NCBI GenBank assembly: GCA_963754085.1 | Contig: CAVWFA010000009.1 | Span: 7,086-71,085 of the forward strand | Source of the DNA: Candidatus Aminicenantes bacterium | GTDB lineage: Bacteria; Acidobacteriota; Aminicenantia; Aminicenantales; Saccharicenantaceae | Direction: 5' to 3' | DNA: 64,000 nucleotides | In this document: in pieces, positions 841 to 20,144 of the stretch | Position numbering within the stretch: the stretch's first letter is position 1 | How the letters are laid out: every line of letters starts with the position of its first letter | Made by a program: the position numbers and the translations under genes | Notes under the pieces: generated by a model | What the model was told of the DNA's origin: nothing | Database searches by the model: none | What the model saw: only the letters and a program-made list of their open reading frames with translations

Positions 841-3267
841 CTAGCTCTTGCCCTCGAAAGTCTGTTCCGTGCGGGCGATGATCTCGTCCTGCACGCCCTT
901 GTGCAGCTTGGTGAAGAACGCGCTGAACCCGGCCACCCGGACCACCAGGTCGCGGTACTTTTCCGGGTGCTTCTGCGCGTCCCGCAGGATGTTGGTGTCC
1001 AGCACGTTGAACTGGATGTGGTAGCCGTCGTTGTCGAAATAGGTCTTGACCAGCCTCAGCACGTTGTCCCGGCCCTTGCGCGTCTTCAGCTGATCGGGCG
1101 GGAGCTTCATGTTCATGTGCGTCGCGGTGAACTTGATCGCGTCCTGGCTCTTGGCGGCGGACATCACCAGCGCGGTCGGTCCGTTGACGTCGGTGCCCGG
1201 CATGGCCGACAGGGATCCGTCGGTGAGCGCCACGCCGGCCTTCTTGCCGTTCGGCAGCGCCCCGGTCACCAGGCCCATCAGGTTGTGGATGCTCTTGGTG
1301 TAGGCGTCGGGCGCCGACTTGATGTCCTTGCTGATATAGTTCCCGCCTCCGAGGACGTTCTGGAAGGCCTGGAAGATGCTTTCGTACACCCGGTGCGTCA
1401 GCTTGTTCACCTCCGGAATGTCGTTGCCGTGCTTGGGAGCCTCGTAACACAGCTTCCCGATCCGCTCGTAGTCCCCCGTAAAATCGGCCTCCAGGGCTTT
1501 CCGCAGCTCGGCCATGGTCAGCTTCTTGGTGTCATAGACCAGGTGCTTCACGGCCATCAGGCTGTTGGCGGCGTCGATGCCGCCCACGACGATCTGGGCG
1601 ACCGTGTAGTAGTTGGCGCCGCCGTTCCAGACCTCGGTGCCGCTCTCGATGCAGCCCTTGGTCAGGATCGAGCGCCAGGCGACGGGCAGGTATTCGGCGC
1701 AGAGAATGCTGGCGATCCAGGCTTCCTTGCGCAGGGTGTCCTCGCAGAACTGCAGCTGCTTCTCGAAGGCCGCGTACAGCTCCTCGAAATCCTTGAAGGT
1801 TTCGGGATTGCCGGTCTTGGGCCCGATCTGCTGCTTGAACATGACGTCGTAGCCGTCGTTCAGCGTCAGGGAAATGACCTTGCCGAGGTTGGGCTGGCCT
1901 TCCACGGGGTGACCGGTCTCATAGGGAATGTAGCTGCCGACGCAGGCGCCGATGCAGGTCCGCCGGGCCTTTTCGAGCGTTATGCCCGTCTTGGAGTCGC
2001 CGAACAGGTTCAGGGCCCGCTTGACCATCACGTCGCCGTTCGTGATCTGGGGCATGCCGATGCCGGTGCCGATGACGTCCAGCACCTTTTCCAGGAACTT
2101 GCCGCTCATCCGTTCGGTGTAGGCGCAGGTCAGCGGAGGCTGCGGCAGGTGCAGATAGGCCGCGGCGTCGAGGACATTGTAGTCCATTTCCGCGGTGGCA
2201 TCCTCGCCTTCCGGGGTGAAGCCTCCGAGGGTGATGCTCTGACCCAGGTCGGCCGAGTTCTGCTTGGAGACCATCTCTCCGTAGTAATACCCGATCTCGT
2301 TCAGCTTGATGAACAGGTTCTCGAGCATGAAGACGGCTTCTTCCGGCCCGACGATCCCGGCCGCCTTGTCGCGCTGGTAGTACGGCTCGAGGTTCTGGCC
2401 CAGGTATGCCTCGGAATAGCCGCAGCCCACCTGCTCGATCTCCGCGCAGATGTGGCAGAAGAAATGGGCCTGGATGGCTTCTCTCAGGTTCCGGGCAGGA
2501 TGCTCGGGCACCCACTCGCAGGTTTCGGCGATGTCGATCAGCTCCTGCTTCCGGACGGGATTCGTCTCTTTGGCCGCCATGTCCCTGGCCAGCTCGGCAT
2601 AACGGTGCGCCAGGCGGATGACGGCCTTCATGGTGATGAGGCAGGATTCGTAGAAATAGAACTTGGGGGCGTTCGGCAGCCTCATCTCGAGGGCGGCCTC
2701 CCTCTCCTGGACGTCCTTGATCACGCTGGCCAGCCCTTCGTTGTAGACCCGGGGGTAGTTCAGGTTGCCGCCGCCGCCGGGCCAGGACATGAACTCCGCG
2801 ACCAGCCCGGTCTTATAGACAGGCGAGGGGTCATAGCCGTACTTCTTGATGAAGATCTCGTCGGCCCGCGGCCGCAGGGCCCGCTTGTCCCAGTAATCGA
2901 GCGCCCAGGCATTGGCCTTGCGGTCTTCCGGGGTCTTCGATTTTTCCACCGTCTTCTCTTCCTTCATCCACTCCACGTTCCACTCCGGATAGGTGTAGAT
3001 GCCGTTGACGGTGCTGGCCATGCTGCCCACGAGGAGATTGTCGTCGATGTACAGCTTCTTCCGCTCGATCAGGGTGGCGAAGAACTTGGCTCTCCGGAGG
3101 ATCTGCTGGTCGCCGACGGTGCTCTCGTAGACCTCGGCCATGATCCGGATGCGCTCGTTGTCGATCGCCTGAGGCGTGCTCAGGTACTGTTCCTTCAGCC
3201 GATCGACCCTGGCGTTGTCGACCTTGACGCGGCCCGTGGTGACCGCCTTGTTCGTTGTTTGTTCCAT
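841..3267 (-). CDS. glycyl radical enzyme, PFL2/glycerol-dehydratase-like class, substrate unknown
   Basis: 808 aa. The C-terminal glycyl-radical motif is VVRVAGFSAFFTKL. The N-terminus is PFL2-type (RVDRLKEQYL...ILRRAKFF...YIDDNLLVGS). The Cys-loop region reads RRTCIGACVGSY, and there is a LPNGKKAGVALTDGSLSAMPGTDVNGPTA loop. RBS aaaggag lies upstream of the ATG. Confidence 0.85.
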   Translation of the reverse strand: MEQTTNKAVTTGRVKVDNARVDRLKEQYLSTPQAIDNERIRIMAEVYESTVGDQQILRRAKFFATLIERKKLYIDDNLLVGSMASTVNGIYTYPEWNVEWMKEEKTVEKSKTPEDRKANAWALDYWDKRALRPRADEIFIKKYGYDPSPVYKTGLVAEFMSWPGGGGNLNYPRVYNEGLASVIKDVQEREAALEMRLPNAPKFYFYESCLITMKAVIRLAHRYAELARDMAAKETNPVRKQELIDIAETCEWVPEHPARNLREAIQAHFFCHICAEIEQVGCGYSEAYLGQNLEPYYQRDKAAGIVGPEEAVFMLENLFIKLNEIGYYYGEMVSKQNSADLGQSITLGGFTPEGEDATAEMDYNVLDAAAYLHLPQPPLTCAYTERMSGKFLEKVLDVIGTGIGMPQITNGDVMVKRALNLFGDSKTGITLEKARRTCIGACVGSYIPYETGHPVEGQPNLGKVISLTLNDGYDVMFKQQIGPKTGNPETFKDFEELYAAFEKQLQFCEDTLRKEAWIASILCAEYLPVAWRSILTKGCIESGTEVWNGGANYYTVAQIVVGGIDAANSLMAVKHLVYDTKKLTMAELRKALEADFTGDYERIGKLCYEAPKHGNDIPEVNKLTHRVYESIFQAFQNVLGGGNYISKDIKSAPDAYTKSIHNLMGLVTGALPNGKKAGVALTDGSLSAMPGTDVNGPTALVMSAAKSQDAIKFTATHMNMKLPPDQLKTRKGRDNVLRLVKTYFDNDGYHIQFNVLDTNILRDAQKHPEKYRDLVVRVAGFSAFFTKLHKGVQDEIIARTEQTFEGKS

Positions 3268-3374: not shown

Positions 3375-3575
3375 TCACTTGGACATCGACATCGACCGGG
3401 CCATCATGCCGCCGGAGATGTTCCGGGCCTTGAACCCGTTCTGGAGAAGGATGCGCGTCGCGTAGTAGGCGCGCTGGGCCGAGCGGCAGATGACGTGGAT
3501 CTCGCGGTCGCGGGGAAGTTCGGCCAGGCGCGCCCGCAGCTGCGGCAGGGGGATGTTGACCGCGCCGACTTTCAT
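3375..3575 (-). CDS. 66-aa mini-rhodanese (C-terminal half of a rhodanese domain with an intact CRSAQR loop)
   Basis: The sequence MKVGAVNIPLPQLRARLAELPRDREIHVICRSAQRAYYATRILLQNGFKARNISGG matches the C-terminus of the 9680..11368 protein. Nucleotides 3390..3566 match 9695..9871 with 3 mismatches in 177 nt. It has its own GGAGGAA RBS and an upstream promoter motif. Confidence 0.6.
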   Translation of the reverse strand: MKVGAVNIPLPQLRARLAELPRDREIHVICRSAQRAYYATRILLQNGFKARNISGGMMARSMSMSK

Positions 3576-3664: not shown

Positions 3665-4030
3665 TCATCCGGCCTGGCCCCGGGCCTTCTCGACGGTCTC
3701 GAGGCCCGCCGAGCTCGATATGGTATCGAATCTGATCTCCGGCCGTTTGGCCGCAAACTCCAAGGCGAGGAGCAGGTTGCGGTATTCGTCCGAACGGAGA
3801 TGACGGTCCATATCTTCACCGTTCCCCCAGACTTGCTCCAGCATGAGGACGTTCTTATCCTGCAGGTCCGCGTAGACGTGGCAGCTGAGGCACCCGGGAT
3901 CGTCTCTCGACAATTCCGCCACAGGCCTGAGGATCTCCAAGACCGCCTGGATCTTCGAAGGAGGCACGGTCATCCGGATGGTCGCCTGGATCATGGGGTT
4001 CTCGGTTTCAGCCGCTGCTAGCAGGGTCAT
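3665..4030 (-). CDS. ABM-type (dimeric alpha/beta-barrel) monooxygenase-like protein
   Basis: MIQATIRMTVPP...CLSCHVYADLQDKNVLMLEQVWGNGEDMDRHLRSDEY resembles the antibiotic-biosynthesis-monooxygenase fold. The true start is probably the internal Met at 3994, which fits the sigma-54 promoter position. Confidence 0.6.
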   Translation of the reverse strand: MTLLAAAETENPMIQATIRMTVPPSKIQAVLEILRPVAELSRDDPGCLSCHVYADLQDKNVLMLEQVWGNGEDMDRHLRSDEYRNLLLALEFAAKRPEIRFDTISSSAGLETVEKARGQAG

Positions 4031-4180: not shown

Positions 4181-6697
4181 TCATTTCGACAGGCCCTGGC
4201 CGGACCGCGTGATGCCCAGCTTTTTCATTTTCGATAGGAGCGTCGTCCTTTTCAGGCCCAGGATCTCGGCGGCTCCGCCCGGCCCGGAGATGCGCCAGCC
4301 GGTCTTCTTCAGAACGGCCGCCAGATGTATCCGCTCCATGTCTTTGAGGTTGCCGGCCATAAGGGCTTCGGAAGACGCACGCTGGGGCACCTCCATGTCC
4401 AGTGTCTTTCCCCTGCTCAGGATCATGGCGTGTTCGACGAGGTTCCTCAGCTCCCTGACGTTGCCCGGCCAGGAATAGGATTGGAGGGCCGCCATCGTCT
4501 TCTTGGGGATGCTCTCGATCTCTTTTCCCATCTTCTTCTGGAATTCCTTGACGATCGCCCGGACCAAGAGGGGGATATCTTCGGGATGCTCGCGGAGGGG
4601 CGGGATAAGGATCGGGAACACGTTCAGCCGGTAGAAGAGGTCCCGGCGGAACTTGCCCTCCTCCACCTCCCGCCCGATGTCCCGGTTGGTGGCGGCGATG
4701 ATGCGGACGTTCACGCGAACGGACGTCGACGAGCCCAAGCGCTCGAAGCTGCCCTCTTCGAGAAAGCGAAGCAATTTGCTCTGGAGCTCGAGGGGCAGCT
4801 CGCCGATCTCGTCGAGAAAGAGGGTCGATCCGTCGGCCATCTCGAAGCGGCCCACCATCCGCGTCAGCGCGCCGGTGTAAGCCCCCTTTTCCCGGCCGAA
4901 CAGCTCGCTCTCGATCAGCGTGGGCGGCAGAGAGGCGCAGTTGACCGTCACCAGCGGCCGGTCTTTTCGGGAGCTCAGGCCGTGGATGGCCCGGGCCAGC
5001 AGCTCCTTCCCTGTTCCGGTTTCCCCCAGGAGGAGGACCGTGGAGTCCGTTCGGGCAACCTGCTCTGCCTGGCTGAGGACCTTCTTCATCGGAGCGCTTC
5101 GCCCCACGATGTCCGAATGCTCGGCCAGGAGCTTGATCTCCTCCTGCAGATAGATGTTCTCGATTTCGAGCCGCTGCCTGAGGCCCTCGATCTCTTTGAG
5201 ACGTGCTTTAAGCTTCTCCTCCATCTGCTTGCGGGCGAGCGCGTTGGCAAAGATCTGCGAGATCATTTTGAGCGTATCGACGAGTTCACCCGGCCAATTC
5301 CGCTCTCCCTTCAAAGTGTTGAACGCCAGCACCCCAAAGGCCGGGCCATCGCCAACGTATAGCGGCAGGACGGCCAACGATTTGGCCCCCGAGCGCCGGA
5401 TGGCCTCGAGATCATCGGCGGCTTCGACGGGCAGGTCGGCGATCCGGGAGACGATAACGGGCTCTTTTGCCAAGGCCCGCTTCATCGCCCACGGAAAATG
5501 GACCCGGGCGTCATCGACACCCATCGTCTCTGCGGAAAAGCCCGGAGAGATATGGTAATGCGTTATCAAGAAGGTCCCTGATGCTTCCGGAGAGAACTGC
5601 CAGAGCAAACAGCGGTCGAATCCCAGGCCTTCGCATATCTCTTTCTGCGCGGCATTGATCTCGCCGTCCAGTCGGTCGATGGGGATATTGATGAACCGCG
5701 TAGAAATTTCGGCCAGCAGTTTCTCGACTTTCGCGCGGTCCAACAGCTGCTGTTGCGCCCGCTTGCGGTCCCCGATGTCCTCGACGATCGAAACGAACCA
5801 CTGCGGCCGGCCGGTCTCGTCGCGGACCAGGGCGACCGTCAGCTCGATCCACACCAGCCCGCCGTCCTTGCGGATGTACCGCTTCTCCATGGAGTAGGAA
5901 TCGATCTTTCCGGACAACAGCCGGCCGGCTTGCGCGAGATCAACCTCGAGGTCGTCGGCATGCGTGATGTCCTGGAACCTGAGCTCCAGCATCTCCTCGC
6001 ACGAGTAGCCCACGATCTCGCAGTATCTCCGGTTGACGCGGAGGAATTTGCCCCTGGGGGAAACATGGGCGATGCCGGCGGCGGCCTGCTCGAACGTGAT
6101 CCGGAACCGTTCCTCGCTCGCCCGCAGGTCATCCTCGATGCGTTTCCGGTTCAGCGCGTTGGCGAACACCTGCGCGACGAGTCCGAACCGGGTCGCGTCC
6201 GTCTCCGTCCAAATTCTCTCTTCGCGCACGGATGCGAAAGCGAGCAGGCCGAAGACCGGCCCGTTTCCAACCGACAGGGGAAGAGACGCCGTGGACTTGG
6301 TGGTAAACGCGCGGTGGGTCTCCAAGTCGCGACTGGCTTCCGGCGGGAAGTCGGCCATTCTCGAGACGATGACGGGCTCCCCGGCCAGGACCTTCCGCAT
6401 CGTCCAGGGGAAGAAGCGGCGGGCCGACATGTCCTCGGGGGGGGAAGGGGACTCCGGGGGAAAGTGCCAATGCGTCAGGAACAGGTCTCTCGGATTTCCC
6501 TCCGGAACCTGCCAGAGGGAGGAGCGATCGACACCGAGGAGCTCGCAGACGCGCCGCTGGGCGTCTCGAAGGCCGCTATCAATCTGGCCGGTGGGTAGAT
6601 CGATGAAGCGGGTGGAGATCTCGGACAGCAGCGTCTCGAACCGCAGCCGTTCCTCGAGGCTTTGCTCCGATGTCGCCGTTTGACCGGGCTTATTCAT
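4181..6697 (-). CDS. sigma-54-dependent transcriptional activator, GAF-PAS-GAF-AAA+-HTH(Fis)
   Basis: 838 aa. Motifs seen: Walker [31 protein letters not shown] (a GAFTGA variant), [11 protein letters not shown] and a C-terminal [24 protein letters not shown]. The N-terminus holds two GAF-like modules flanking a PAS domain ([17 protein letters not shown]). Confidence 0.9.
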
Positions 6698-6828
6698 GGC
6701 GTCGTTTTCTCAGGACCGCTTGTGACACAGAACGACCGATCCCCGATATGGCTAATTTAATAAAGAAGTTAGAAAAAATCAATGGACGCGTTCTGGCTTA
6801 TCGCGGTGACGAAGCGTAGACCGGGAAC

Positions 6829-7122
6829 TCACGCGTTCAGCTTCTTCCGCGCCGTCCCCCCGATGACCACGGCCGCCACGACGAGCACCCAGAACGGGAA
6901 AACGTAGAAGCCGGGGATGGCCTCCATGATCAGGCCGGGCAGCAGGACCCACTGAAAGCCCAGCACGACGAACAGCAGCGCCGCCGTCGCGAGGTCGACC
7001 GTCCATTGCACCGGCGGTGTGAAGGTCAGGACGACAGAGAGCGCATCGGCCAGCAAGGCTATGGCGAAGGCCTGGACCAGCGTTCTTCGGGAGAAGCGCG
7101 GGCGGGGCTGGGGCTCGCTCAC
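6829..7122 (-). CDS. small integral membrane protein, unknown function
   Basis: 97 aa with 3 hydrophobic helices (LVQAFAIALLADALSVVL, AALLFVVLGFQWVLLPGLIM, FPFWVLVVAAVVIGG). Confidence 0.45.
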   Translation of the reverse strand: MSEPQPRPRFSRRTLVQAFAIALLADALSVVLTFTPPVQWTVDLATAALLFVVLGFQWVLLPGLIMEAIPGFYVFPFWVLVVAAVVIGGTARKKLNA

Positions 7123-7311
7123 AGGTGATCTCCTTTTCTTCCCCGAGTTATCAACGCCAAGCCACGTCGACGGGCCTCCGTAGCGGGGATCCGCTGGTCC
7201 TTCTCGGCCGGATACCCGATCACGAACGTTCCATACGCCATATAGCCTTCCGGGATGGGGACGGGGTGCCGGTCAATGGTGATCAGCCCCCCGGGGCAGG
7301 CCCGGATTTCC

Positions 7312-8166
7312 TCAGAAGTCGGGGTCCTTGAAGGTCGGCTCCCGGCCTTCGGTGAAAGCCAGGATCCCCTCGACCCGGTCGGGGTGCACGACCGAGCGCC
7401 AGTGCTCGTCCATCATGATCGCGGCGGCCTGCTCGACAGGCTCGCCTTGCCCGTTCTGAACGGCGCGCTTGACCGACTGGACCGCCGTTGGGGAGTTGGC
7501 CGCGATCTTCTCCGCAATGCTGAGCGCTCCGGCCATCAACTCTGTTCGGGGATAGATTTCGTTGACCATGCCAAGCCGGTGCGCCTCTTGAGCCGTGATC
7601 GGTTCGCCCGTCATGAGCATCTGCATGGCCTTCCCCGGAGGGAGGACACGGGGGAGGAAGATCGGCCCGCCGCCGCCGGCGCTCAGGCCGACCAGCGCTT
7701 CGGGTTGCCCGAAAACGGCGTCGTCGGAGGCGATGATAAAGTCCGTGCTGATGGCGATCTCGCAGCCGCCGCCAAAGGCCATCCCATGGACAGCGGCGAT
7801 GATCGGCCGGCGCAGCTGGCGCAGCGTGTAGAGAACGCGGTCGAAGACCAGGCGCTGGCGCAGCCATTGCTCCTTCGTCATGTTCTTGCGCTGGTACAGG
7901 TCGCCGCCGACGGAGAAGGCTCTGTCCCCGGCTCCGGTGATGATGGCGGCGCGCACGGTGGCGCGGGCGGCGATCGTCTCGAGAACCTCGATCAGCTGTT
8001 CCGCCAATTCCGTCGTGATCGCGTTGTCGGCATGCGGCCGGTTGAGTGTGATGATCGCCACGCGCCCGCCGGAGACGTACTCGACGAGCACGAGCTGATC
8101 GGGCTCTCTATCAGAGGTCGGCGGACGGTAGCCCATTTTCCTCATGCGTGTTTGGGGATCGTTCAT
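7312..8166 (-). CDS. enoyl-CoA hydratase/isomerase (crotonase) family protein
   Basis: VAIITLNRPHADNAI...AAIITGAGDRAFSVGGDL...PIIAAVHGMAFGGGCEIA is the crotonase oxyanion-hole signature. The start is set at the Met preceded by GGAGGAA (8166), not the ORF-track start at 8244. Confidence 0.85.
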   Translation of the reverse strand: MNDPQTRMRKMGYRPPTSDREPDQLVLVEYVSGGRVAIITLNRPHADNAITTELAEQLIEVLETIAARATVRAAIITGAGDRAFSVGGDLYQRKNMTKEQWLRQRLVFDRVLYTLRQLRRPIIAAVHGMAFGGGCEIAISTDFIIASDDAVFGQPEALVGLSAGGGGPIFLPRVLPPGKAMQMLMTGEPITAQEAHRLGMVNEIYPRTELMAGALSIAEKIAANSPTAVQSVKRAVQNGQGEPVEQAAAIMMDEHWRSVVHPDRVEGILAFTEGREPTFKDPDF

Positions 8167-8229
8167 TGCAGATTCCTCCTTCAGCGATGATTCGATGTCA
8201 GCGGGCAGCGCCAGCGGAGATTTCGGGAA

Positions 8230-8263
8230 GGCGCCAGGCGGCAACGTTCTGCCGCCTGGCGCC
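8230..8263 (-). terminator. 13-bp perfect stem-loop downstream of the DszB-like gene
   Basis: ggcgccaggcggc-aacgttct-gccgcctggcgcc. No U-tract follows. Confidence 0.45.
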
Positions 8264-8329
8264 CGTACTTTACTTCATTTCAGCTGCGGCCTGATTGCCC
8301 GGGCCGCCTCGGGCTGAGCGTCCTCCCGG

Positions 8330-9523
8330 TTATCCGACCCGCTTGTTCTCCGCGAACAGCTTGGTCACATCGGGGAGCTTGGCCGCAGTCTTCTTGGTCC
8401 ACTCAAACTCGAGCAGCTCCTTCGCCGCCTGTTCGAGGAATTCCGGCGCGGCCCACTTCTTCACATCGAAGTCGTTCTTGATGTAGCCGTGGCTCAGCAT
8501 GAAGTTCTTCCCGACCTCGACGGCGGCAAGATTCAGAGGTGAAAGGTTGGGCACCAAGTCAACATCTCTGATACCTTGGTAAGTGGCCTCGACGTCACGG
8601 TAGAACGTCTGTTGGTCGAGAATTTCCGCCGCGGCATACTTGTTCTGATTGGCCCAGCGACCGGCCCGGATCATGCCCTTCATGAACGTGACGGCGAGTT
8701 CGGGATGCTCCTTGGCCATGACGTCGGTGCATGTGATGGCTGCAGGAATGTTGGCCACCTGCAGGCGCCAGTCCGGATAGCGGGAGAGATCCTCGATCGC
8801 CGCGAACTTGCCCGTCGCCTCGCAAACCTGTTGAAGCGGCTTGGTCTGCAAGTACAACGCATCGATGACCCCTTTTTCCAGCGCCGACTCCAATGGACGG
8901 AAGGCCAAATCGCGCTTATGATCACGAGCTAACCACAGATCAATCGAAAGCTCCATGGTCGCTTTCACCATTGCCGGCGCGTTATACCAGTCATCCGCGT
9001 AGGGGAACTCGACAAGTTCGATGTCGTCCATGGTCATGCCGTTCATCCGGAGCATCAGCTCGATCCCCTGGTGCTCCTGAATGCGCCACCAGTCGTTCTT
9101 GATCTTGTTCATGCTCTTGGAAATGCCGATTTTCTTACCTTTCAAATCGGACATCCGGTAAATATCGTCCTTGGCGCGCACCATCATAACGCCGCCTTCG
9201 GCCGGCATCTGCGTCACCCCAAGCAGTTTGGTCCGGCGGATATCTGCATGAACTTCGATGGGCGGAAACAAACCGCCGAAGCGGATGAGATTTTCCTGGT
9301 TGTGGATGTAGTGGGGATACCAGTCGGTCTCAGCGGTCGACCGCATGTAGGCAAACTTCACCCCGATCTTCTTAAACTCCTTCTTGGTCAAGCCCAAGCC
9401 TTCATCCACGTTGCTGGCGGACACAAGCGGGCAATTGGTGTAGTAGACCTCTTTCCAGTTCAAGGGAACGACCTTCAATTTCGTGTTCTCGAACGTCGTT
9501 TCTTTGATTTTTGTCTCAGCCAT
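8330..9523 (-). CDS. DszB-like desulfinase homologue (NMT1/THI5/SsuA periplasmic-binding-protein fold, no signal peptide)
   Basis: 397 aa. YYTNCPLVSASNV, LIRFGGLFPP, GKKIGISKSM and KKWAAPEFLEQ align by eye with the 2'-hydroxybiphenyl-2-sulfinate desulfinase DszB as I recall it (TYSNCPVPNA with the catalytic Cys, YTRFGGEIPP, GRRIGVSASA, DQWAAPEFLNN). No export signal. AAGGAGAG RBS. Confidence 0.55.
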   Translation of the reverse strand: MAETKIKETTFENTKLKVVPLNWKEVYYTNCPLVSASNVDEGLGLTKKEFKKIGVKFAYMRSTAETDWYPHYIHNQENLIRFGGLFPPIEVHADIRRTKLLGVTQMPAEGGVMMVRAKDDIYRMSDLKGKKIGISKSMNKIKNDWWRIQEHQGIELMLRMNGMTMDDIELVEFPYADDWYNAPAMVKATMELSIDLWLARDHKRDLAFRPLESALEKGVIDALYLQTKPLQQVCEATGKFAAIEDLSRYPDWRLQVANIPAAITCTDVMAKEHPELAVTFMKGMIRAGRWANQNKYAAAEILDQQTFYRDVEATYQGIRDVDLVPNLSPLNLAAVEVGKNFMLSHGYIKNDFDVKKWAAPEFLEQAAKELLEFEWTKKTAAKLPDVTKLFAENKRVG

Positions 9524-9679
9524 GTTCTGTCTCTCCTTTGATACGTTGTCTCATCACCGGACCGGCGGTGATGGCGATCTGTCCGAAACCCAGGCCCGGC
9601 CGCCCCGACCAACCTGAAACGTCAGAAGGCGTTTTCCTCTTCTCCCGATATTCCCCTCCTTTCCGGTTCAAATTCATTT

Positions 9680-11368
9680 TCATTTAGCTGCAAGCATCGA
9701 CCGGGACATCATGCCGCCGGAGATGTTCCGGGCCTTGAACCCGTTCTGCAGAAGGATGCGCGTCGCGTAGTAGGCGCGCTGGGCCGAGCGGCAGATGACG
9801 TGGATCTCGCGGTCGCGGGGAAGTTCGGCCAGGCGCGCCCGGAGCTGCGGCAGGGGGATGTTGACCGCGCCCGGCACGGCGGCCACGGCGATCTCCGGCG
9901 GGTTGCGCACGTCGAGGAGGAACCCGTCGCCCAGGGAGTCCCAGTGGCTGAGCGGCATGTCGCCCCGCAGGACGTCGGCCGAGACCATGCCCGCGAAGTT
10001 GACGGGATCCTTGGCGCTGCCGAACGGCGGCGCGTAGCAGAGCTCGGATTCCTCCAGGTCGTACACCGTCGCCCCCATCTGGACGGCCATGGCCAGGGCG
10101 TCGATCCGCTTCTCGACGCCGTCCTTGCCCAGCGCCTGGGCCCCGAGGAGGCGCCCGTCGGATTTCCGGAAGAGGACCTTCAGGACGATCGTCTTGGCGC
10201 CCGGGTAATACCCGGCGTGCGAGTTCGGGAAGAGGTAGATCTTTTCGTAATCCTTCTGGCCTTGCCGGACCAGCTGCTTCTCGTTGGCGCCGGTCGTGGC
10301 CACCGTGGCCCCGAAGATCCCGATGACCGAGGTGCCCTGGGTGCCGCGGAAGCGGGAGTCGCGCCCGGCGATGACGTCGGCCGCGATCCGGCCCTGCCGG
10401 TTGGCCGGCCCGGCGAGGGGGATGAGCGTCCATTCGCCGGTGACGAAGTCCTTGACCTCGACCGCGTCCCCGACGGCGAAGATGTCCGGGTCGCTCGTGT
10501 GCATCTGGTCGTCGACCCGGATCCCGCCGCGCTTGCCGATCTCGAGCCCGGCCGCCTTGGCCAGCTCGGTCTCCGGACGCACGCCGATGGCCAGGATGAC
10601 CATGTCCGCCGGATAGGTCTTGCCGGACTTCGTGAGCACCTCGAGCGCGCCGTCGGCCGTCTGCTTGAATCCGGCCACCGCGTCGTTGAGCGCGAGGCGG
10701 ACGCCGTTCTCTTCCATGTGGCGCTCGACGAGGCTGGCGCACTCCGGGTCGAGCGGCGCCATGACGTGATCGAGCATCTCGACCAGCGTCACTTCGAGGC
10801 CGCGGTGGACCAGGTTCTCGGCCATCTCCAGGCCGATGTACCCGCCGCCGACCACGACCGCCCGCTTGACCTTGTCCAGCGGCCGGAAGCCCGTGGCCGA
10901 GCCCTCGCCGGTCCAGGCGCTCGAACCCCGGTCGATCCATTCCCGGATCTCCCGGGCGTCCGGCACGGTCCGGACCGAGAAGATGCCCGGCAGGTCGATC
11001 CCGGGCAGGGGCGGACGGATCGGGGCCGCCCCGGGCGACAGCACCAGCTTGTCGTACTTTTCGGTCGTGACTTCGCCCGTCACGTGGTTCTTGAGGGCCA
11101 CGGTCTTCTCTTTCGGCGAGATCCCGACCGCCTCGCAGCGCGTCCGGCAATCGATGCCGAACACGGCGCGGAAGGTCTGCTCGTTGGACACGAGCAGGCT
11201 GGCCTCCTTTTCGATGACGCCGCTGACATGGTAGGGCAGCCCGCAGTTCGCGTACGAAACGTACGGCCCGCGCTCCACCATGAGGATCTCGGCCTTCTCG
11301 TCCAACCGGCGCAGGCGCGCCGCGCACGACGCTCCGCCGGCCACTCCGCCGACAATGACGACTTTCAT
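9680..11368 (-). CDS. CoA-disulfide reductase / NAD(P)H persulfide-polysulfide reductase-like flavoprotein with C-terminal rhodanese domain
   Basis: 562 aa. Motifs seen: MKVVIVGGVAGGAS FAD motif, the redox Cys in SYANCGLPYH, a second dinucleotide fold VVVGGGYIGLE, and a C-terminal rhodanese LLDVRNPPE...HVICRSAQRA. Confidence 0.85.
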   Translation of the reverse strand: MKVVIVGGVAGGASCAARLRRLDEKAEILMVERGPYVSYANCGLPYHVSGVIEKEASLLVSNEQTFRAVFGIDCRTRCEAVGISPKEKTVALKNHVTGEVTTEKYDKLVLSPGAAPIRPPLPGIDLPGIFSVRTVPDAREIREWIDRGSSAWTGEGSATGFRPLDKVKRAVVVGGGYIGLEMAENLVHRGLEVTLVEMLDHVMAPLDPECASLVERHMEENGVRLALNDAVAGFKQTADGALEVLTKSGKTYPADMVILAIGVRPETELAKAAGLEIGKRGGIRVDDQMHTSDPDIFAVGDAVEVKDFVTGEWTLIPLAGPANRQGRIAADVIAGRDSRFRGTQGTSVIGIFGATVATTGANEKQLVRQGQKDYEKIYLFPNSHAGYYPGAKTIVLKVLFRKSDGRLLGAQALGKDGVEKRIDALAMAVQMGATVYDLEESELCYAPPFGSAKDPVNFAGMVSADVLRGDMPLSHWDSLGDGFLLDVRNPPEIAVAAVPGAVNIPLPQLRARLAELPRDREIHVICRSAQRAYYATRILLQNGFKARNISGGMMSRSMLAAK

Positions 11369-11395
11369 GGTTGTTCCTCCGTTTTCTTCTCTGAT

Positions 11396-11965
11396 CTATT
11401 TGGACTTGTTCAGCTTGCTGATCTTCGAGCCTTCCAGGGTCAGGTTGTACATCAGCCCCTTCTGGCCGACGATGAACCCGACGATCGGGGCTTTGATGTT
11501 CGTGGTGTCGATGGACTTCCCGGCCCCGATGTCGATGAGGACCACGGAGCCGTCCACGCCGGCCTTCCAGCCGCTGCTCTCCCGGAACTTCTTCAGGGCC
11601 TCCTCGGCCAGGAAGACGATGATGACGTCCTTTTTCTGGGCCCCGAACTGCAGGCCGATCGAGGCCGAGGAGATGCTGTAGTAATCGACGGTCTGGCCGC
11701 CGACGCGGAGCGCCCCTTCCCCGTGCTCGCCGCCGATCCCGAGGCCCGCCTTGATGACGCCGGCGAAGACGCAGACGCCCTTGGCGCTCTTGAGGAATTC
11801 GGCCGAGCCCTTCACTTCCTTCTGGAACCGGTCCAGCGCCGCGTCGACCTTGGCGTCGATCTCCTTGGCCGTGGCCGCCTGAAGGGCCGGGGCCCCGGAG
11901 AACACGAGAAGCAGGATCGCCGCCGCCAGGACGGCCTTCGGTCTTCCGTGGGACTTGGCGTTCAT
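11396..11965 (-). CDS. SYLF (Ysc84/DUF500) lipid-binding domain protein, secreted
   Basis: Signal peptide AAAILLLVFSGAPALQA, followed by GVCVFAGVIKAGLGIGGEHGEGAL...IGLQFGAQKKDVIIVF...APIVGFIVGQKGLMYNLTLEGSKI, typical of SYLF. Confidence 0.7.
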   Translation of the reverse strand: MNAKSHGRPKAVLAAAILLLVFSGAPALQAATAKEIDAKVDAALDRFQKEVKGSAEFLKSAKGVCVFAGVIKAGLGIGGEHGEGALRVGGQTVDYYSISSASIGLQFGAQKKDVIIVFLAEEALKKFRESSGWKAGVDGSVVLIDIGAGKSIDTTNIKAPIVGFIVGQKGLMYNLTLEGSKISKLNKSK

Positions 11966-11966
11966 G

Positions 11967-12875
11967 TTATCGACCTCCTGGCGAGATGTCGCGGCCCGCT
12001 AACGGGCCGGCTCGCTCTTCAGCGTCTTTCCTTCCGGCCACCTTCAAGACGAGCATCAGCAGCAGGTTGGCGGGAGCCATGATGGCGCCGAAGACAACGA
12101 GCGGAGCCAGCACGGGCAGATCGGGAAAGCTCCGGCCCGCGATGGCGATGCACAGGGCGACGTTGCGCATGCTGCTGGCGGTGGCCAGGATCCCCCGCGT
12201 CCGCGTCCGCGGCCCTCCGACGATCCAGCCGATGAGCATCGAGACGAGGATGAGGACGATGACGCCGACGAGCACCCTCGGGCCGCCCCCGCTCTTCGCC
12301 CAGCTGGACAGAGACCGGGTCCTGACGATGACGACGATAAAGGCCAGGGTCGCGATGAGGGAGACCGGTCCGCCGAGCTTGCGGGCGACGGCCGCGGCCC
12401 GGTCGTGAACGGCGATCCCCAGGACCAGCGGGAGGATCGAAAAGAGCGCCAGATACAGGACAGCGTTCACGTAGGGGACGTTGATCGTCAAGCCCCGGGG
12501 CAGGACGAGCGAGATGAGGATCGGGGAGATGATGACCGAGAGGAGCGAGAGCAGGAAAGCCGTCGCCCCGGCGTAAGCGAGCATCCTCTCTTCCTTCGTC
12601 TTCGTCAGGAACTGGAGCGCGCCGAGACCGCCCGGGGCGCAGGACAGGAGGATCAGCGCCAGGGCGTTCTCCGGCTTGAGCGCGAACGCCTTGGCCGCCA
12701 GGACCCCCACGGCGGGGATCAGGATGAAATTGGCGATGAAGACCCGCACGAGCCAGCTTCTGTCCCGGACGACGGACAGGATCTCGTCCTTGCCGACCTT
12801 CAGGCCGATGCCCAGCATCGATCCCACGAGAAAGACATAGAACAGGGCCCTGGTCAAAGGATCCAGGATGAACAT
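11967..12875 (-). CDS. bile acid:Na+ symporter (BASS/SBF) family transporter
   Basis: 302 aa polytopic protein. FLVGSMLGIGLKV...FILIPAVGVL...LILLSCAPGG matches BASS-family signatures. Its stop lies 1 nt from the next gene's ATG. Confidence 0.7.
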   Translation of the reverse strand: MFILDPLTRALFYVFLVGSMLGIGLKVGKDEILSVVRDRSWLVRVFIANFILIPAVGVLAAKAFALKPENALALILLSCAPGGLGALQFLTKTKEERMLAYAGATAFLLSLLSVIISPILISLVLPRGLTINVPYVNAVLYLALFSILPLVLGIAVHDRAAAVARKLGGPVSLIATLAFIVVIVRTRSLSSWAKSGGGPRVLVGVIVLILVSMLIGWIVGGPRTRTRGILATASSMRNVALCIAIAGRSFPDLPVLAPLVVFGAIMAPANLLLMLVLKVAGRKDAEERAGPLAGRDISPGGR

Positions 12876-12928
12876 GATCTTTCCTTTCTTCTCCGGGGCT
12901 GGCCGGACCGACGGGCGGCGCGCGAAAA

Positions 12929-13306
12929 CTACGGGATCGACCCGTTCAGCTCCTGTTTCCGGACCAGTTCCAGCAGGGACTCCCCGGAGAACGGCTTCTG
13001 AAGATACCCGATCGCGCCGTTCTGCAGGGCGAACTCCCGCGCCTGGATGTCGGCATTCCCCGTGACCACGATCACCGGCATGCCGTGGCGCAGCTCCCGC
13101 ATCTTCTTCATCAGTCCGAACCCGTCGCAGACCGGCATGTGGATATCGACGATGGCATACCCGGTCTGCCCTGTCGGCACCGAGTCAAGGAACGACTGGG
13201 CCGACGCGAAGAACTCTGCGGGGATCCCTCGGGCGTTCAGCATTCGCTTGAGCGACTTGCCGAACGACAGGTCGTCGTCGACGATGCAAAAGGATAGCTG
13301 TTCCAA
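12929..13306 (-). CDS. single-domain response regulator (CheY-like receiver)
   Basis: FCIVDDDLSFGKSLKRML...YAIVDIHMPVCDGF...PVIVVTGNAD...GAIGYLQKPF. Uses a TTG start. Confidence 0.85.
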   Translation of the reverse strand: MEQLSFCIVDDDLSFGKSLKRMLNARGIPAEFFASAQSFLDSVPTGQTGYAIVDIHMPVCDGFGLMKKMRELRHGMPVIVVTGNADIQAREFALQNGAIGYLQKPFSGESLLELVRKQELNGSIP

Positions 13307-13355
13307 GTCCGTTCGGCCCTTTCCGCGGGCAGTCTCTCACAGGGCCGGAGGAGTT

Positions 13356-13376
13356 GTCTATTGGACCTTGGGCTAA
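13356..13376 (-). promoter_or_regulatory. conserved upstream 16-mer plus degenerate -35 (copy b)
   Basis: Minus strand reads TTAGCCCAAGGTCCAA-TAGAC. It overlaps the kinase stop codon and lies 50 nt upstream of the response-regulator start. The -35/-10 boxes are weaker than in the other copies. Confidence 0.35.
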
Positions 13377-15868
13377 GTGCCGCGAAGCGGCCGCCCGGGC
13401 CGGGCGAAGCGCCGGCGTTCGTTATCATCCTTCTCCGGGCTCCCCGACCCGGCTTTCAAGGCAAAATGGAAGATCGCGCCCCCCGCGGCATTGGTCTCCG
13501 CCCAGATCCGGCCGCCATGTTCGTCGAGGATCGATTGGCAGATGGTCAACCCCATCCCGAGGCCGTCCTTCTTGGTCGTAAAGAAGGGTTTGAACAAATT
13601 GTCCTGGCCCACCTGGCCGAACCCCGGCCCCGTGTCGCTGACGCTGACGACGACGGTGTCCGCCGCCGCCGCGGCGGAGCGGACTTCCAATACCCTCCGG
13701 GGCGCCCCTTTTATGGCGTCGACGGCGTTCGCCATCAGATTCAGCAGGACCTGCTCCAGCCGGACCCGGTCGCCGCGGACATCCGGCAGGCCCGTCGCCA
13801 GGTCTAACCGGAGCGTTATGTTGTTCATGGCCAAGCTGTTGCTCACAAGCCGGAGGACCTCCTCGATCAGGGCATTGACGTTCAGCGGCTCGAATTTCGC
13901 CTCGCCCTTTTTCACGATCCCCCGGATCTTGCGGACGACATCCCCGGCGCGAAGAGCGTCCTGGATGATATCCTCGACGATCTCGCCGATCTCCCCGCCC
14001 CCTCCCTCGACCCGGCCCAACAGCGACTTCGCGGCCTCGGCGTTGTTGAGGATCGCGCCCAGCGGCTGGTTGATCTCGTGGGCCAGGGAGGTCGAGAGCT
14101 CGTTCATCGTCATGACCCGGGCCAGATGAGCGAGCTCGTGGCGCATCTCGATCCTTTCGCTCTCGTCCAGCAGGTCTTTGGTGATATCGCGCGTCAGGCA
14201 GAGGTATCCCCGGTGCTCTTCGTCCGGCCCCCGAAGCGCCATGGACGAGACCTCGACAGTGAACTCGGACCCATCCCGCCGCAGGCCGGTGTAGATCCGG
14301 GGCGGCACGTCCCGGCCTTCCAGGATCTCCCGCATCGTCCGGGCGCCGCGTTCGCGGTCTTTTTCGGCGATGAACAGGGGGGTGTAGAGGCCGACGAGCT
14401 GCTCCGGAGAATCGTAGCCGTACAGGCGGGCCTGGAGGGAATTCGCGGCCCGGACATGACCGTCCGGTCCGATCAACACGATGCCCGCCGGGGCCGATTC
14501 GAACAACGTCCGGTAGCGCCGCTCCGAATCGGCCAGCGCCAGCTCCCCCTCCTTGCGCTCCGTGACGTCCAGGGACACCCCCTTCATGCTCGCCGGCTGG
14601 CCCGAGGGATCGAGGAACCCCTGGGCCCGGACGCCGACCCACCGAATGCGCCCGTCGGGCAGCACGACCCGGTATTCGGTCTGGACGATCGCGCCCTGGC
14701 GGAACCCCTGTTCCGCGACCAGACGGACCCGTTCGAGATCATCCGGGTGAAGCGTCCGCTCGTATCGATCGGCCGTGATCTCCTCGTCGGGCGCGAACCC
14801 GTAGAGCAGCCGGGTCTTGTCCGTCACCCAGATCTTTCCGGTCCGATAATCCCAGGACCACAGTCCGGCGCGGGCCGCGTCGGCGGCCAGCTGCAGCCGC
14901 GCTTCGCTCTCCCGCAGGTCGCCCTCGGTGAACTTCCGGTTCAGGGCGTTGGCGAAGATCTGGGCCACGATCCGCAGCTTGTCCCGCAGGTCCTCCGTCC
15001 ACTCCCGCTCCTCCTTCACGGCATTGAAGTTGATGGCCCCGAACGCCGGGCCGTCGCCCACATAGAGCGGGATCGTCAGGACGGACTTGAGGCCGAAATA
15101 CCTCCAGCCCTCCAGGTCGCGGGCGGCCTCCGGAGGAGCGTCGGCGACCCGGGACAACACGATCATCTCCTTTTGTTTCGACTTTTCGAAACACCAGGGG
15201 AACGTGACCTGGGCGTCCCGGCTTTCGTCGGTGACCACCGGGAACTCCGGGGGGACATAGATATGGGACATCACGAAATTCCCGAACGGCGTGAACTGCC
15301 ACAGGGCGCAGACGTCCAGCTTCAGGCATTCGCAGATCTGCCGCTGCGCGGCCAGGATCTCGCCATCCAGCTGATCGATCGGCAGGCCGATCAGCTTCGT
15401 CGATATGGCCGTCACCAATTTCTGGAAATTGGACCGCTCTTCCAGCTGTTCGTCCATCCGTTTCCGGTCGCTGATGTCCTCGACGATCGAAACGAACCAG
15501 CCCGGACGGCCGGTCACGTCGCGGACCAGGGCGACCGTCAGCCTGACCCAGACCGGCTCGCCGTCCTTGCGGAGGTAGCGCTTCTCCATGGCGTAGGAGT
15601 CGGCCTGTCCGGACAAGAGCCGGCCGGCCAGGGCGAGGTCGGCCTCGAGGTCGTCGGGATGCGTGATGTCCTGGAATGTGCGCTCGAGCATCTCGGCGGG
15701 CGAGTACCCCACGATATCGCAGAACTTGCGGTTGATGCGAAGGAATTTCCCGTCCGGTGAAACGTGGGCGATGCCGACCCCGGCCTGCTCGAACGTGACC
15801 CGGAAGCGTTCCTCGCTCGCCCGCAGGTCTTCCTCGACGCGCTTCCGGTTCAGCGCGTTGGCGAACAT
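13373..15868 (-). CDS. sensor histidine kinase, PAS-GAF-PAS-PAS-HisKA-HATPase (the largest intact frame of a longer, disrupted gene)
   Basis: H-box MNELSTSLAHEINQPL, N-box LEQVLLNLMANAVDA, G-boxes DTGPGF and GLGMGLTIC. The first ~330 aa are paralogous to the sensory module of the 4181..6697 activator. Confidence 0.8.
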   Translation of the reverse strand: MFANALNRKRVEEDLRASEERFRVTFEQAGVGIAHVSPDGKFLRINRKFCDIVGYSPAEMLERTFQDITHPDDLEADLALAGRLLSGQADSYAMEKRYLRKDGEPVWVRLTVALVRDVTGRPGWFVSIVEDISDRKRMDEQLEERSNFQKLVTAISTKLIGLPIDQLDGEILAAQRQICECLKLDVCALWQFTPFGNFVMSHIYVPPEFPVVTDESRDAQVTFPWCFEKSKQKEMIVLSRVADAPPEAARDLEGWRYFGLKSVLTIPLYVGDGPAFGAINFNAVKEEREWTEDLRDKLRIVAQIFANALNRKFTEGDLRESEARLQLAADAARAGLWSWDYRTGKIWVTDKTRLLYGFAPDEEITADRYERTLHPDDLERVRLVAEQGFRQGAIVQTEYRVVLPDGRIRWVGVRAQGFLDPSGQPASMKGVSLDVTERKEGELALADSERRYRTLFESAPAGIVLIGPDGHVRAANSLQARLYGYDSPEQLVGLYTPLFIAEKDRERGARTMREILEGRDVPPRIYTGLRRDGSEFTVEVSSMALRGPDEEHRGYLCLTRDITKDLLDESERIEMRHELAHLARVMTMNELSTSLAHEINQPLGAILNNAEAAKSLLGRVEGGGGEIGEIVEDIIQDALRAGDVVRKIRGIVKKGEAKFEPLNVNALIEEVLRLVSNSLAMNNITLRLDLATGLPDVRGDRVRLEQVLLNLMANAVDAIKGAPRRVLEVRSAAAAADTVVVSVSDTGPGFGQVGQDNLFKPFFTTKKDGLGMGLTICQSILDEHGGRIWAETNAAGGAIFHFALKAGSGSPEKDDNERRRFARPGRPLRGT

Positions 15869-16407
15869 CTGCGCGACGAGCCCGAACCGGGTGATGTCCG
15901 TCTCCGTCCAACGCTTTTTTCGCCCGTGGTCCCGAAAGCGAGCAGGCCGAAGACCGGCCCGTCTCCGACCGAAAGGGGAAGGGTCGCGGTGGACTTCGTG
16001 CCGAACGCGCGGTGGGTCTCCAGGTCTCGGCCGGCTTCCGGCGGGAAGTCGGACAAGCTCGAAAGGATGACCGCCTCACCGGCCAGGATCCTCGCGTACC
16101 GTCCAGGGGAAGAAACGGATGCCGGACATCGTCTCGGGAGGAGGCGGGGCTTCCCGGAGGAAGATACCAGTGCGTCAGGAACATCGCTCCGGGTTCACCC
16201 TCCGGAGCCTGCCAGAGGGACGAGCGGTCGAGATCGAGGAGCTCGCAGAGGCGCCGCTGGGCGTCTCGAAGGCCGTTGTCGATCCGGCTCGGTGGGCAGG
16301 TTGATGAATCGCGCGGAAAGCTCGGACAGCAGCCGCTCGAACCCCTCCCGCCGCTGCGGGAGCTTTCGCGGCCTGGCCGCCCGAGGTTTAGCCGGCGTCT
16401 TCAACAT
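15869..16407 (-). pseudogene. disrupted N-terminal GAF domain of the histidine kinase (at least 4 frameshifts)
   Basis: Pieces in three frames: EGFERLLSELSARFINLP / [28 protein letters not shown]...MFLTHWYLPPGSP / PPPPETMSGIRFFPWTVRE / [53 protein letters not shown]. They are colinear with aa 1-190 of the 4181..6697 protein. Shifts are near 16278-16292, 16138-16155, 16084-16096 and 15905-15925. Confidence 0.75.
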
Positions 16408-16445
16408 TATGGTCCTCGAGTATCCCTAAAAAGGAGAGGACAATA

Positions 16446-16474
16446 ACGATACCACCGGCCCCCGGATTTTTCAA
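16446..16474 (-). promoter_or_regulatory. candidate sigma70-type promoter of the kinase gene
   Basis: Minus strand reads TTGAAA-17 nt-TATCGT. A GAGGA RBS follows, then the ATG at 16407. Confidence 0.45.
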
Positions 16475-16526
16475 GTTTCCCGGCAGTCCGACGGACGGAA
16501 TCGGACCTCTGGCGGGTGCCGCCGGG

Positions 16527-17591
16527 TCAGCGTGTGGGCACGGTCACGACCGGCGCGGCCGGGCTCTGGCCGGTCTCGGCCAGCGAGAACAGGATCAACA
16601 GGAAGGTGAAGGTGCGCTTGCTGGCCAGGTCGGTATCCTCGATCCAGTACCAGTGGCCCTTGTAGGGCACCGAAGCATAGGTGGTCTCCGGCACGCTCGT
16701 TCCCGAACGGATCTCCACGAGGGGTGCCGCCTTTGCATCGCCGGGCCTCCACAGGCCGGGCAGGACACGGCCGCTCGTTCCGTGGCCCGCGGGCAGATCG
16801 ATGCCCGTCCCCATGTCCAGAATGATCTCCAGCATCGAACGGGTGATCATGGCCACCTGCTGGCCGCCGCGCGGCGCCAAGCCGTAAACGATCTCGATCT
16901 CCGTCGCACCCGGCTCCAACCCCAGGAGTTCCGCCAGACGGCGGACGTCTTCGAGCGGCCCGGACTGCCGGCCTTCCGGCCGGAGCACCAGAATGACCGC
17001 GCTGCCGTCTTTGCGGGCTTCGACCCGGTTGCCGAGGCCGCCGGCGCGTTGAAGACGGGACAGGAGATCGACGATCTCGCGGAAACCGGGATCGCCGCCG
17101 ACCCCGAAGGAATCGTTGCGCAACCCATTGATCGACCGGACCGCGGTCCCCATGACCAGGTCCGTCGGCCAGCCGCCCTGCATCAATTGCATGACGGCCG
17201 ACGGCGGAATGGGTTGGAGCAAAGACCTGGTGAACCGGTCTCCCAGCAGCGGTTGGTAGGTCACGGTCGGCGTGTTGGACCAGGCCCCCCCCGCGCCCAG
17301 CGTGAACCCGTCTCCGAGCTGGCCATTCGACACCTGGGCGCCTCCCGACGCGGTGCCGGCGACCGAATAGCTGTTGATGACGGAGGCGACGTCCAGGAAC
17401 ACCGGCGCGTCGGCATAGCGAAGGCGCACGACGTTGAGGAGCGTCTGGCGCTTCCAGGATTCGGCGATCACCTGCCCGTAGTCCATGCGGTCCACCGTGA
17501 CCCGCGCCGCGGGGACGCGGACGCAGCCGGCCAAGACCAGCAACAACAACACGCCGGAATACTTCATCCTTTGGCAAGTGACCAGTCGCAT
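16527..17591 (-). CDS. conserved lipoprotein of unknown function
   Basis: 354 aa with lipobox LLLVLAGC. GGAGG RBS. A truncated paralogue lies at 47060..47401. Confidence 0.6.
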   Translation of the reverse strand: MRLVTCQRMKYSGVLLLLVLAGCVRVPAARVTVDRMDYGQVIAESWKRQTLLNVVRLRYADAPVFLDVASVINSYSVAGTASGGAQVSNGQLGDGFTLGAGGAWSNTPTVTYQPLLGDRFTRSLLQPIPPSAVMQLMQGGWPTDLVMGTAVRSINGLRNDSFGVGGDPGFREIVDLLSRLQRAGGLGNRVEARKDGSAVILVLRPEGRQSGPLEDVRRLAELLGLEPGATEIEIVYGLAPRGGQQVAMITRSMLEIILDMGTGIDLPAGHGTSGRVLPGLWRPGDAKAAPLVEIRSGTSVPETTYASVPYKGHWYWIEDTDLASKRTFTFLLILFSLAETGQSPAAPVVTVPTR

Positions 17592-17725
17592 AATCGTTCC
17601 TCCCCCATCGAACCTACCGCCTGGCCCCGGGGACCCGGGAATTCCCCGTCCGGGCCGCTCACGGAACTATTCGCAGGACCTGAAGGCGGCTGCCCGCCGC
17701 CGTCAGGTCCGCTTCGTAACGATAT

Positions 17726-20091: not shown

Positions 20092-20144
20092 GGTTCTTTC
20101 TCCTCTTGTCTAAATGTGGCCGCCCGTACGTGGTCAGACAAGCC

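Follow-up and report, generated by a model that had tools for sequence, protein, structure and literature searches.

A cytoplasmic DszB-like protein encoded among rhodanese and CoA-persulfide reductase genes on a mobile island

The 64,000-nucleotide stretch of a Candidatus Aminicenantes bacterium genome analyzed here (assembly GCA_963754085.1, contig CAVWFA010000009.1, positions 7,086 to 71,085; hereafter, the window) carries, at 8330-9523 on the minus strand, an open reading frame (ORF) that starts with ATG and encodes a protein of 397 amino acids (P0001; hereafter, T). A preliminary description, made from the sequence alone, had read T as a cytoplasmic homologue of the desulfinase DszB, encoded next to a crotonase and a persulfide-reductase-type flavoprotein. 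Both neighbors are present as described, namely, a crotonase-family enoyl-CoA hydratase at 7312-8244 and a CoA-disulfide/persulfide reductase with a C-terminal rhodanese domain (CoADR-RHD) at 9680-11368, both on the minus strand. These genes belong to an array with the same-strand order BASS, Ysc84, CoADR-RHD, T, crotonase, small ORF, sigma-54 activator, ABM and glycyl radical enzyme (GRE).

A ribosome-binding site, AAAGGAGAG, is located 7 nt before the ATG of T, and two in-frame stops 9-10 codons 5' of this ATG rule out a longer N-terminus. The maximum 12-residue hydropathy within the first 50 residues is 0.54, the maximum 19-residue value in the whole protein is 0.73, and hydropathy analysis of full-length T revealed neither a signal peptide nor a membrane segment. 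Thus, given this low hydropathy and the lack of room for an N-terminal extension, T is a cytoplasmic protein. In family searches, Pfam gave a weak partial match to NMT1 and nothing else, and NCBIfam gave SsuA_fam alone, at 60.7 bits against a cut-off of 163.5. Genuine DszB shows the same sub-threshold match to SsuA_fam, and there is no curated DszB model in either Pfam or NCBIfam. Databases label T as an ABC-transporter substrate-binding protein, a label that is almost certainly wrong; a feature search of the ESM Atlas with T returned only its own 'ABC binding protein' clusters.

When T was compared with all PDB sequences using phmmer, DszB was the sole significant match (2DE2, E 1.4e-12, residues 68-366 of T on 57-360). 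In a BLASTP comparison, T matched the annotated DszB of the Mycobacterium plasmid pMyong1 (E 2e-20, 25% identity, T residues 16-363), a protein that is encoded in a dszA-dszB-dszC operon and itself matches 2DE2 at E 3e-147. An AlphaFold2 model of T, built from a 32-sequence family alignment, has a mean pLDDT of 87.9, and its best Foldseek match is DszB (2DE3, E 4e-21, TM 0.67/0.76), with SsuA (6e-15), Thi5 and TauA ranking below it and the SsuA/TauA/ThiY/THI5-type matches as a whole falling between E 1e-11 and 6e-15. The periplasmic-binding-protein fold without a signal peptide that had been proposed for T is therefore borne out by Foldseek together with hydropathy.

The active site is conserved along with the fold. 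T residues Cys31, His71, Arg81 and Gly84 align with Cys27, His60, Arg70 and Gly73 of DszB, which in the active site of that enzyme bind the sulfinate and carry out the attack on it (PMC12168087). The four DszB blocks named in the preliminary description all line up in real alignments: YYTNCPL of T with AYSNCPV of DszB, LIRFGGLF with YTRFGGEI, LKGKKIGIS with LAGRRVGVS, and KKWAAPEFLE with EQWAAPEFLA. In an alignment of T with 5 clade members and 26 distant representatives of the family (down to 23% identity; n = 32), nine columns are invariant (C31, H71, R81, G83, G84, G129, L158, P260 and W357). Thus, the Cys/His/Arg set, the conservation of which had been singled out for checking, is present in all 32 family members, together with Gly84. 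Two further residues, N30 and F82, invariant in the clade of T, are common to T and true DszB and differ in most other members of the family. The outcome that the preliminary description had named as contrary to its proposal, with best hits among NMT1/THI5 or ABC binding proteins and the Cys not conserved, did not occur. We conclude that T is a cytoplasmic enzyme with the fold and the active site of DszB rather than a transporter binding protein.

Within this family, T belongs to a compact clade. A word-indexed search found 2,978 relatives of T, the best 120 of which are all 75-89% identical to it. In an exhaustive search of 50%-identity representatives, the whole T clade forms one full-length cluster (P0028), the next full-length relatives outside the clade are at most 48% identical to T, and no more than 920 clusters have an E value of 0.001 or better. 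For P0133 and P0129, the nearest relatives outside the clade, the contigs measure 2-4 kb, too short for gene context. Across 76 clade sequences taken from the loci analyzed, 175 of the 397 positions are conserved at a level of at least 97%. A second cysteine, C265, is invariant in the T clade and rare elsewhere in the family, and the same holds for eight residues (W179, Y180, R200, H202, K203, D205, R209 and E212) of a lid spanning positions 175-212, which is the lowest-confidence part of the T model. Judging from the topology of the fold, C265 and C31 might both lie at cleft-facing strand ends of the same lobe. One 829-aa 'SulP-T' protein, encoded on a single contig, was rejected as a fusion and is most likely a read-through, given that its SulP part starts in the middle of the transporter, with about 100 unrelated residues after it. 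In a search of the full-text literature, no paper characterizing the T clade or its module was found.

To our knowledge, DszB is the sole characterized member of the family and is known only from aerobic fuel desulfurization; the T clade combines the DszB fold and site with a different, conserved and mobile pathway context. T is encoded at 338 places in the species-genome collection. The ORFs of the best 80 of these 338 loci were clustered and the recurrent clusters annotated, and tblastn was then used to recount the main neighbors in those 50 loci whose flanks extend for the full 10 kb on either side of T. Within this distance, a small rhodanese (c1) is encoded in 33/50 loci and a CoADR-rhodanese fusion in 27 (median identity of 73% to the copy in the window); one or the other is present in 47 of the 50. 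Less frequent are the crotonase (19/50, median identity 80%, directly downstream of T in many loci), a HypD/PFL2-class GRE followed by a PFK-family protein and then an activase (18/50, median identity 79%), and a 2x[4Fe-4S]-nitroreductase fusion (ferredoxin-nitroreductase; 13/50). Like T, the CoADR-RHD, the crotonase and the GRE are unusually conserved between phyla, and in gammaproteobacterial loci the rhodanese-T pair is repeated two or three times in tandem. The further recurrent neighbors are SulP-STAS and BASS/SBF transporters (BASS cluster c7 in 21/80 loci), outer-membrane barrels and host-specific regulators (LuxR, AraC, sigma-54). No ABC permease or ATPase is found among the annotated recurrent neighbors of T, and dszA and dszC are missing both from the window and from the recurrent neighbors in the 80 loci. 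Prediction of a complex of T with the stand-alone c1 rhodanese gave no answer (score 0.00), which speaks neither for nor against an interaction.

In several loci (L002, L004, L014, L022, L046 and L081:21591-25110), the sulfur module is accompanied by genes for a GH63/MGH1-like glucosidase, a GH13 amylase-family protein, a Zn-alcohol dehydrogenase, an aquaporin-family channel and G6PD, and the glucosidase is up to 79% identical between Rhizobium and metagenome-assembled genomes (MAGs). This set suggests a larger mobile 'anoxia or stress' island.

The distribution of T is that of a mobile gene. The best 80 of the 338 loci come from MAGs labeled with at least 13 phyla, and their T copies are 72-93% identical to that of the window; mis-binning cannot explain this spread because several copies are encoded on contigs of 2-4 Mb. 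The maximum-likelihood tree of T involves 30 changes of phylum label compared to a minimum of 12; the seven Acidobacteriota rows need seven changes, and the T of the window nests among copies from Bacteroidota and Ignavibacteriota. At E 1e-120, T was detected in none of 300 other genomes sampled across the phylum of the window (274 of high quality, one of them of the same genus and 95% complete), and the same-genus genome encodes no orthologues of CoADR-RHD or GRE, only paralogues at 33-36% identity. The GC content of the T gene is 55.2%, the lowest among the local genes, vs. 65.1% for the window. The absence from the sampled relatives, together with the low GC content, indicates that T was probably acquired horizontally. 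At the DNA level, the first 40 kb showed no alignable synteny with the same-genus genome from which the borders of the island could be read, and no tRNA genes flank the region. The phage collection contains no T-clade copy, only two distant DszB-like matches.

A second contig of the same assembly (G000:C19:1-16272; L090) is a 93-99% near-copy of window positions 5331-20137, with a T protein of the same sequence; co-assembly of a strain variant is the most likely explanation, ahead of a true duplication. The 4.1-kb crotonase-T-CoADR-RHD stretch recurs nearly identically in sediment, freshwater and wastewater metagenomes from at least 13 studies, and is also found in contigs from metatranscriptome libraries of two studies, which attest to its presence in RNA libraries rather than proving transcription or giving its level. 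Differences in read depth between T/CoADR-RHD and the flanks were considered as a measure of expression and dropped given that the contigs come from many organisms.

In the window itself, the CoADR-RHD (P0003) contains a CRSAQR loop and matches Pyr_redox_2, Pyr_redox_dim and Rhodanese in Pfam, with the NCBIfam match to CoA-disulfide reductase falling below the cut-off. The crotonase (P0005; Pfam ECH_1, E 1e-61) retains both catalytic Glu contexts (GGGCEIA and QPEALVG), and its true start is likely an internal ATG (MNDPQ). The remaining genes of the array, all on the minus strand, are those for a BASS/SBF-family anion:sodium symporter (11967-12875; Pfam SBF, cluster c7); a Ysc84-domain protein between BASS and CoADR-RHD, which is not a recurrent partner (11396-11965); a small ORF of 97 aa without a family match (6829-7122; cluster c42, in 4 loci); a sigma-54 activator with a GAF-PAS-GAF sensor (4181-6697; P0004) paired with an ABM-domain protein (3665-4030; cluster c39); and the GRE, of the HypD/PFL2 class (841-3267; cluster c5), a recurrent island member. 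The pair of sigma-54 activator and ABM protein is also located upstream of CoADR-RHD/T in three other loci (L024, L070 and L071). The radical-SAM activase of the GRE is encoded just off the window (G000:C9:5636-6949, minus strand), with an ORF without a Pfam match between the GRE and the activase in this genome (L089:4550-5629), and with a ferredoxin-domain protein and then a second BASS transporter beyond the activase. A search of this genome found no stand-alone rhodanese of the c1 type; a 75-codon open frame at window positions 3399-3566 (G000:C9:10484-10651) scores above the Pfam cut-off for a rhodanese domain and is a 'mini-rhodanese' copy of the 3' end of CoADR-RHD.

Directly upstream of BASS-CoADR-T and on the same strand are a stand-alone receiver-domain gene (12929-13306) and a PAS/GAF histidine kinase gene (13373-15868), which could be local regulators. 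A search for sigma-54 −24/−12 promoters yielded 25 matches vs. 44 expected by chance, and a promoter and terminator scan of positions 6600-13500 yielded nothing useful on the minus strand.

Outside of MAGs, T is carried by plasmids of Rhizobium. On plasmid NZ_CP030763 of Rhizobium leguminosarum ATCC 14479, a T with 68% identity lies in the order two BzdNO/double-cubane-like reductase subunits, T, two activase ATPases, BASS, two rhodaneses and SulP, and the rhodanese, SulP, glucosidase and reductase subunits of this plasmid are 68-80% identical to the copies in MAG loci. Plasmids of R. leguminosarum bv. trifolii 22B and R. johnstonii encode T at 60% identity; on pRL22b1, the plasmid of 22B, a CoADR-RHD 72% identical to that of the window faces T. 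On the same plasmid (L082:10954-13164), T comes after genes for a homocysteine S-methyltransferase family member and, under an Lrp/AsnC regulator, a polar-amino-acid ABC importer, a context that hints that the substrate there may be a sulfur amino acid or a sulfonium compound. The two-subunit BzdNO/double-cubane-like reductase (L015:17320-19760, L016:4759-7202 and L081:9457-14885) is 68-79% identical between Rhizobium and deltaproteobacterial MAGs; in Rhizobium, its two activase ATPases are BcrAD-like, and in the deltaproteobacterial loci L015 and L016 the reductase pair follows a GRE-PFK-activase-ferredoxin set. Given the reductase and the GRE in these loci, T is repeatedly found near radical or low-potential redox enzymes. 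The Rhizobium leguminosarum carriers are cultured and genetically tractable, making direct experiments feasible.

With regard to chemistry, the direction of sulfur flow and the class of substrate, we infer, at somewhat less than even odds, that T depends on its Cys to cleave a sulfinate or a thiosulfonate, and that this cleavage is one of the steps in a compact sulfur-handling module that moves horizontally. The sulfur oxyanion group of a sulfinate (R-SO2-) or thiosulfonate (R-SO2-S-) would be bound by His71, Arg81 and the backbone of Gly84, and Cys31 would break the bond to the bound sulfur, yielding sulfite (or thiosulfate) and the desulfurized remainder. Sulfane sulfur would be removed or accepted by rhodanese domains, that is, c1 elsewhere and the rhodanese domain of CoADR-RHD in this window. 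Enzymes of the CoADR-RHD type are CoA-persulfide reductases (PMC9405070; PMC7969121), such that CoADR-RHD with NAD(P)H could convert the resulting CoA persulfide to CoA and H2S. SulP and BASS transporters may move the anionic substrate or product, and the crotonase, the ferredoxin-nitroreductase, the GRE and the BzdNO/double-cubane-like reductase would be optional add-ons that may prepare or finish the organic part.

In classical enzymology, rhodanese readily takes sulfur from thiosulfonates, which are thereby turned into sulfinates, and a rhodanese followed by a desulfinase is therefore a coherent two-step route; rhodanese, desulfinase and CoA-persulfide reductase together could form a closed route to sulfite and sulfide. 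We favor the DszB-type mechanism as the most economical one because it keeps the anchoring of the sulfur oxyanion and the cleavage by Cys and also explains the rhodanese and CoADR-RHD. The wider family is tied to sulfinate and sulfite chemistry since the DszB-like clades of aerobes are encoded with DszA/DszC-type oxygenases and sulfite oxidase; in the T clade, the oxygenases are exchanged for sulfane-sulfur enzymes. The preliminary description had suggested that T may perform a C-S (sulfinate) cleavage step in the organosulfur metabolism of this organism. The homology with DszB and the intact site bear out the relationship to DszB, and sulfinate cleavage in organosulfur metabolism is one possible role. 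The conserved partners are rhodaneses, a CoA-persulfide reductase and anion transporters rather than enzymes that build or break down an organic skeleton, and the gene is located on a mobile island.

Several observations weigh against sulfinate or thiosulfonate cleavage. T and DszB are only 25% identical, and the shared site could serve other chemistry. Known sulfite-releasing pathways are paired with sulfite exporters, oxidases or reductases, and none of these is found among the recurrent neighbors of the islands; neither was a siroheme sulfite reductase domain found in this 73%-complete genome. Ipso-protonation of the DszB type requires an aromatic carbon, and we know of no aryl sulfinate that is widespread in nature. 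The island also lacks an acyl-CoA ligase or transferase with which to feed the crotonase. Finally, a signal-peptide-like N-terminus is present in about half of the c1 rhodaneses, which, for this reason, would not directly meet the cytoplasmic T.

The linkage with rhodaneses can also be read differently, with T as a thiosulfate- or polysulfide-cleaving sulfurtransferase or a sulfur carrier and the island as a unit for the detoxification or assimilation of inorganic reactive sulfur, a possibility that we consider unlikely. Thiosulfate, through its SO3 end, or a sulfane chain would occupy the position of the sulfinate in DszB, Cys31 would attack the sulfane sulfur to form a persulfide, possibly resolved by Cys265, and the sulfur would then pass to rhodanese, to CoA and, via CoADR-RHD, to H2S. 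Such a role is consistent with the rhodanese being the tightest partner and T plus rhodanese the minimal unit, with the frequent presence of a CoA-persulfide reductase near T, with the SulP family being one of inorganic-anion transporters, and with a second invariant Cys in the T clade only. Rhodaneses, however, already perform this reaction, which would leave no need for a further catalyst with a different fold, and the many clade-specific aromatic residues and the 40-residue lid suggest a larger organic ligand. The other genes of the islands cut both ways: the crotonase and the radical enzymes point to an organic moiety, whereas enzymes acting on a carbon skeleton are not consistently linked to T. 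The range of carriers, from anaerobes to Rhizobium, Methylobacter and a cyanobacterium, fits a general stress role better than catabolism.

If the redox enzymes near T are taken as its functional partners, T could be the last step of an oxygen-independent desulfonation, whereby a sulfonate or sulfone is converted to a sulfinate by the GRE, the ATP-driven reductase of the BzdNO/double-cubane type or the ferredoxin-nitroreductase, and T then releases sulfite; this appears less probable still. The DszB-like proteins of aerobes follow sulfinate-making oxygenases, and an anaerobic counterpart would need reductive or radical partners, such as those seen on the ATCC 14479 plasmid, where T lies between the two reductase subunits and the two activase ATPases, in L015 and L016, with their conserved reductase pair and GRE-activase set, and in the 18 and 13 of the 50 loci that have, respectively, the GRE and the ferredoxin-nitroreductase at most 10 kb from T. 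In most T loci, though, neither radical system is present within 10 kb, the link with rhodanese is left unexplained, and no sulfite reductase or exporter is linked. Moreover, the PFK-family, GH63/GH13, G6PD and alcohol-dehydrogenase genes in the same islands raise the possibility that the radical enzymes belong to a co-traveling anoxia or fermentation module. Finally, it is improbable that T is a non-catalytic cytoplasmic binder of the SsuA/NMT1 fold (a sensor, chaperone or transporter accessory) or has a non-sulfur isostere as its substrate, as an aromatic-acid decarboxylase would, which the database label, the weak NMT1 match that is all Pfam offers, and the isosterism of carboxylate with sulfinate might suggest, given the family-wide invariance of the catalytic Cys/His/Arg/Gly, the lack of a signal peptide and of ABC partner genes, the consistent sulfur-enzyme neighborhood, and the conservation of 175/397 positions across phyla, which is more typical of a tightly constrained enzyme.

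As a member of a nearly invariant clade that moves from phylum to phylum with genes for sulfur transfer, T probably marks an undescribed sulfur reaction. A broader version, which we regard as doubtful, is that T and rhodanese perform an undescribed, oxygen-independent cleavage of sulfinates or thiosulfonates that, in the presence of the reductase or the GRE, would have a sulfonate or sulfone as its starting compound, with a reduction or rearrangement preceding the cleavage, and that has spread horizontally through sediment, soil, lake and wastewater communities. The T module would thus be a possible route of anoxic C-S cleavage and, if the cleavage is indeed independent of oxygen, a new way for sulfur in organic form or in an intermediate oxidation state to enter the anoxic sulfur cycle. 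The oxygen-free processing of organosulfur oxyanions and sulfane-sulfur adducts is poorly known, and a widespread, mobile module of two to five genes would provide a testable handle on it.

Among known systems, SsuA, TauA, ThiY and THI5 (the NMT1 superfamily) have the overall fold of T, in line with the weak NMT1 and SsuA_fam profile matches, but the first three are secreted and serve ABC importers as binding proteins, whereas T has neither a signal peptide nor ABC partners and possesses a DszB-type catalytic site. The cst-like persulfide-clearance operons (Enterococcus faecalis CoAPR with RhdA/RhdB) combine a CoADR-rhodanese fusion with stand-alone rhodaneses, as do the T islands (PMC9405070), but contain no DszB-like protein, crotonase, SulP or radical enzymes, and their regulator, CstR, is not seen in the T islands. 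The DszB-like proteins of aerobic sulfur-scavenging operons, such as those of Sinorhizobium meliloti AK83 (pSINME01) and Sphingobium (pTomTYG65a), belong to the same family as T at 26-29% identity with the Cys/His/Arg conserved; unlike the T clade, they are encoded with NtaA/DmoA- and acyl-CoA-dehydrogenase-type (DszA/DszC-like) oxygenases, flavin reductases and sulfite oxidase. DszB/TdsB/BdsB itself (2'-hydroxybiphenyl-2-sulfinate desulfinase of the 4S pathway, EC 3.13.1.3; PDB 2DE2, 2DE3 and 2DE4) is, like T, a class-II periplasmic-binding-protein fold used as a cytoplasmic enzyme, and shares with it the YxNCP, RFGG, G(K/R)(K/R)IG(I/V)S and WAAPEFL blocks. T differs from DszB in having an extra C-terminal helix of about 30 residues, the clade-specific 175-212 lid and the invariant C265, and in its genomic setting, with no dszA/dszC or other flavin monooxygenase genes nearby and with rhodaneses, CoADR-RHD, crotonase and SulP/BASS as partners instead.

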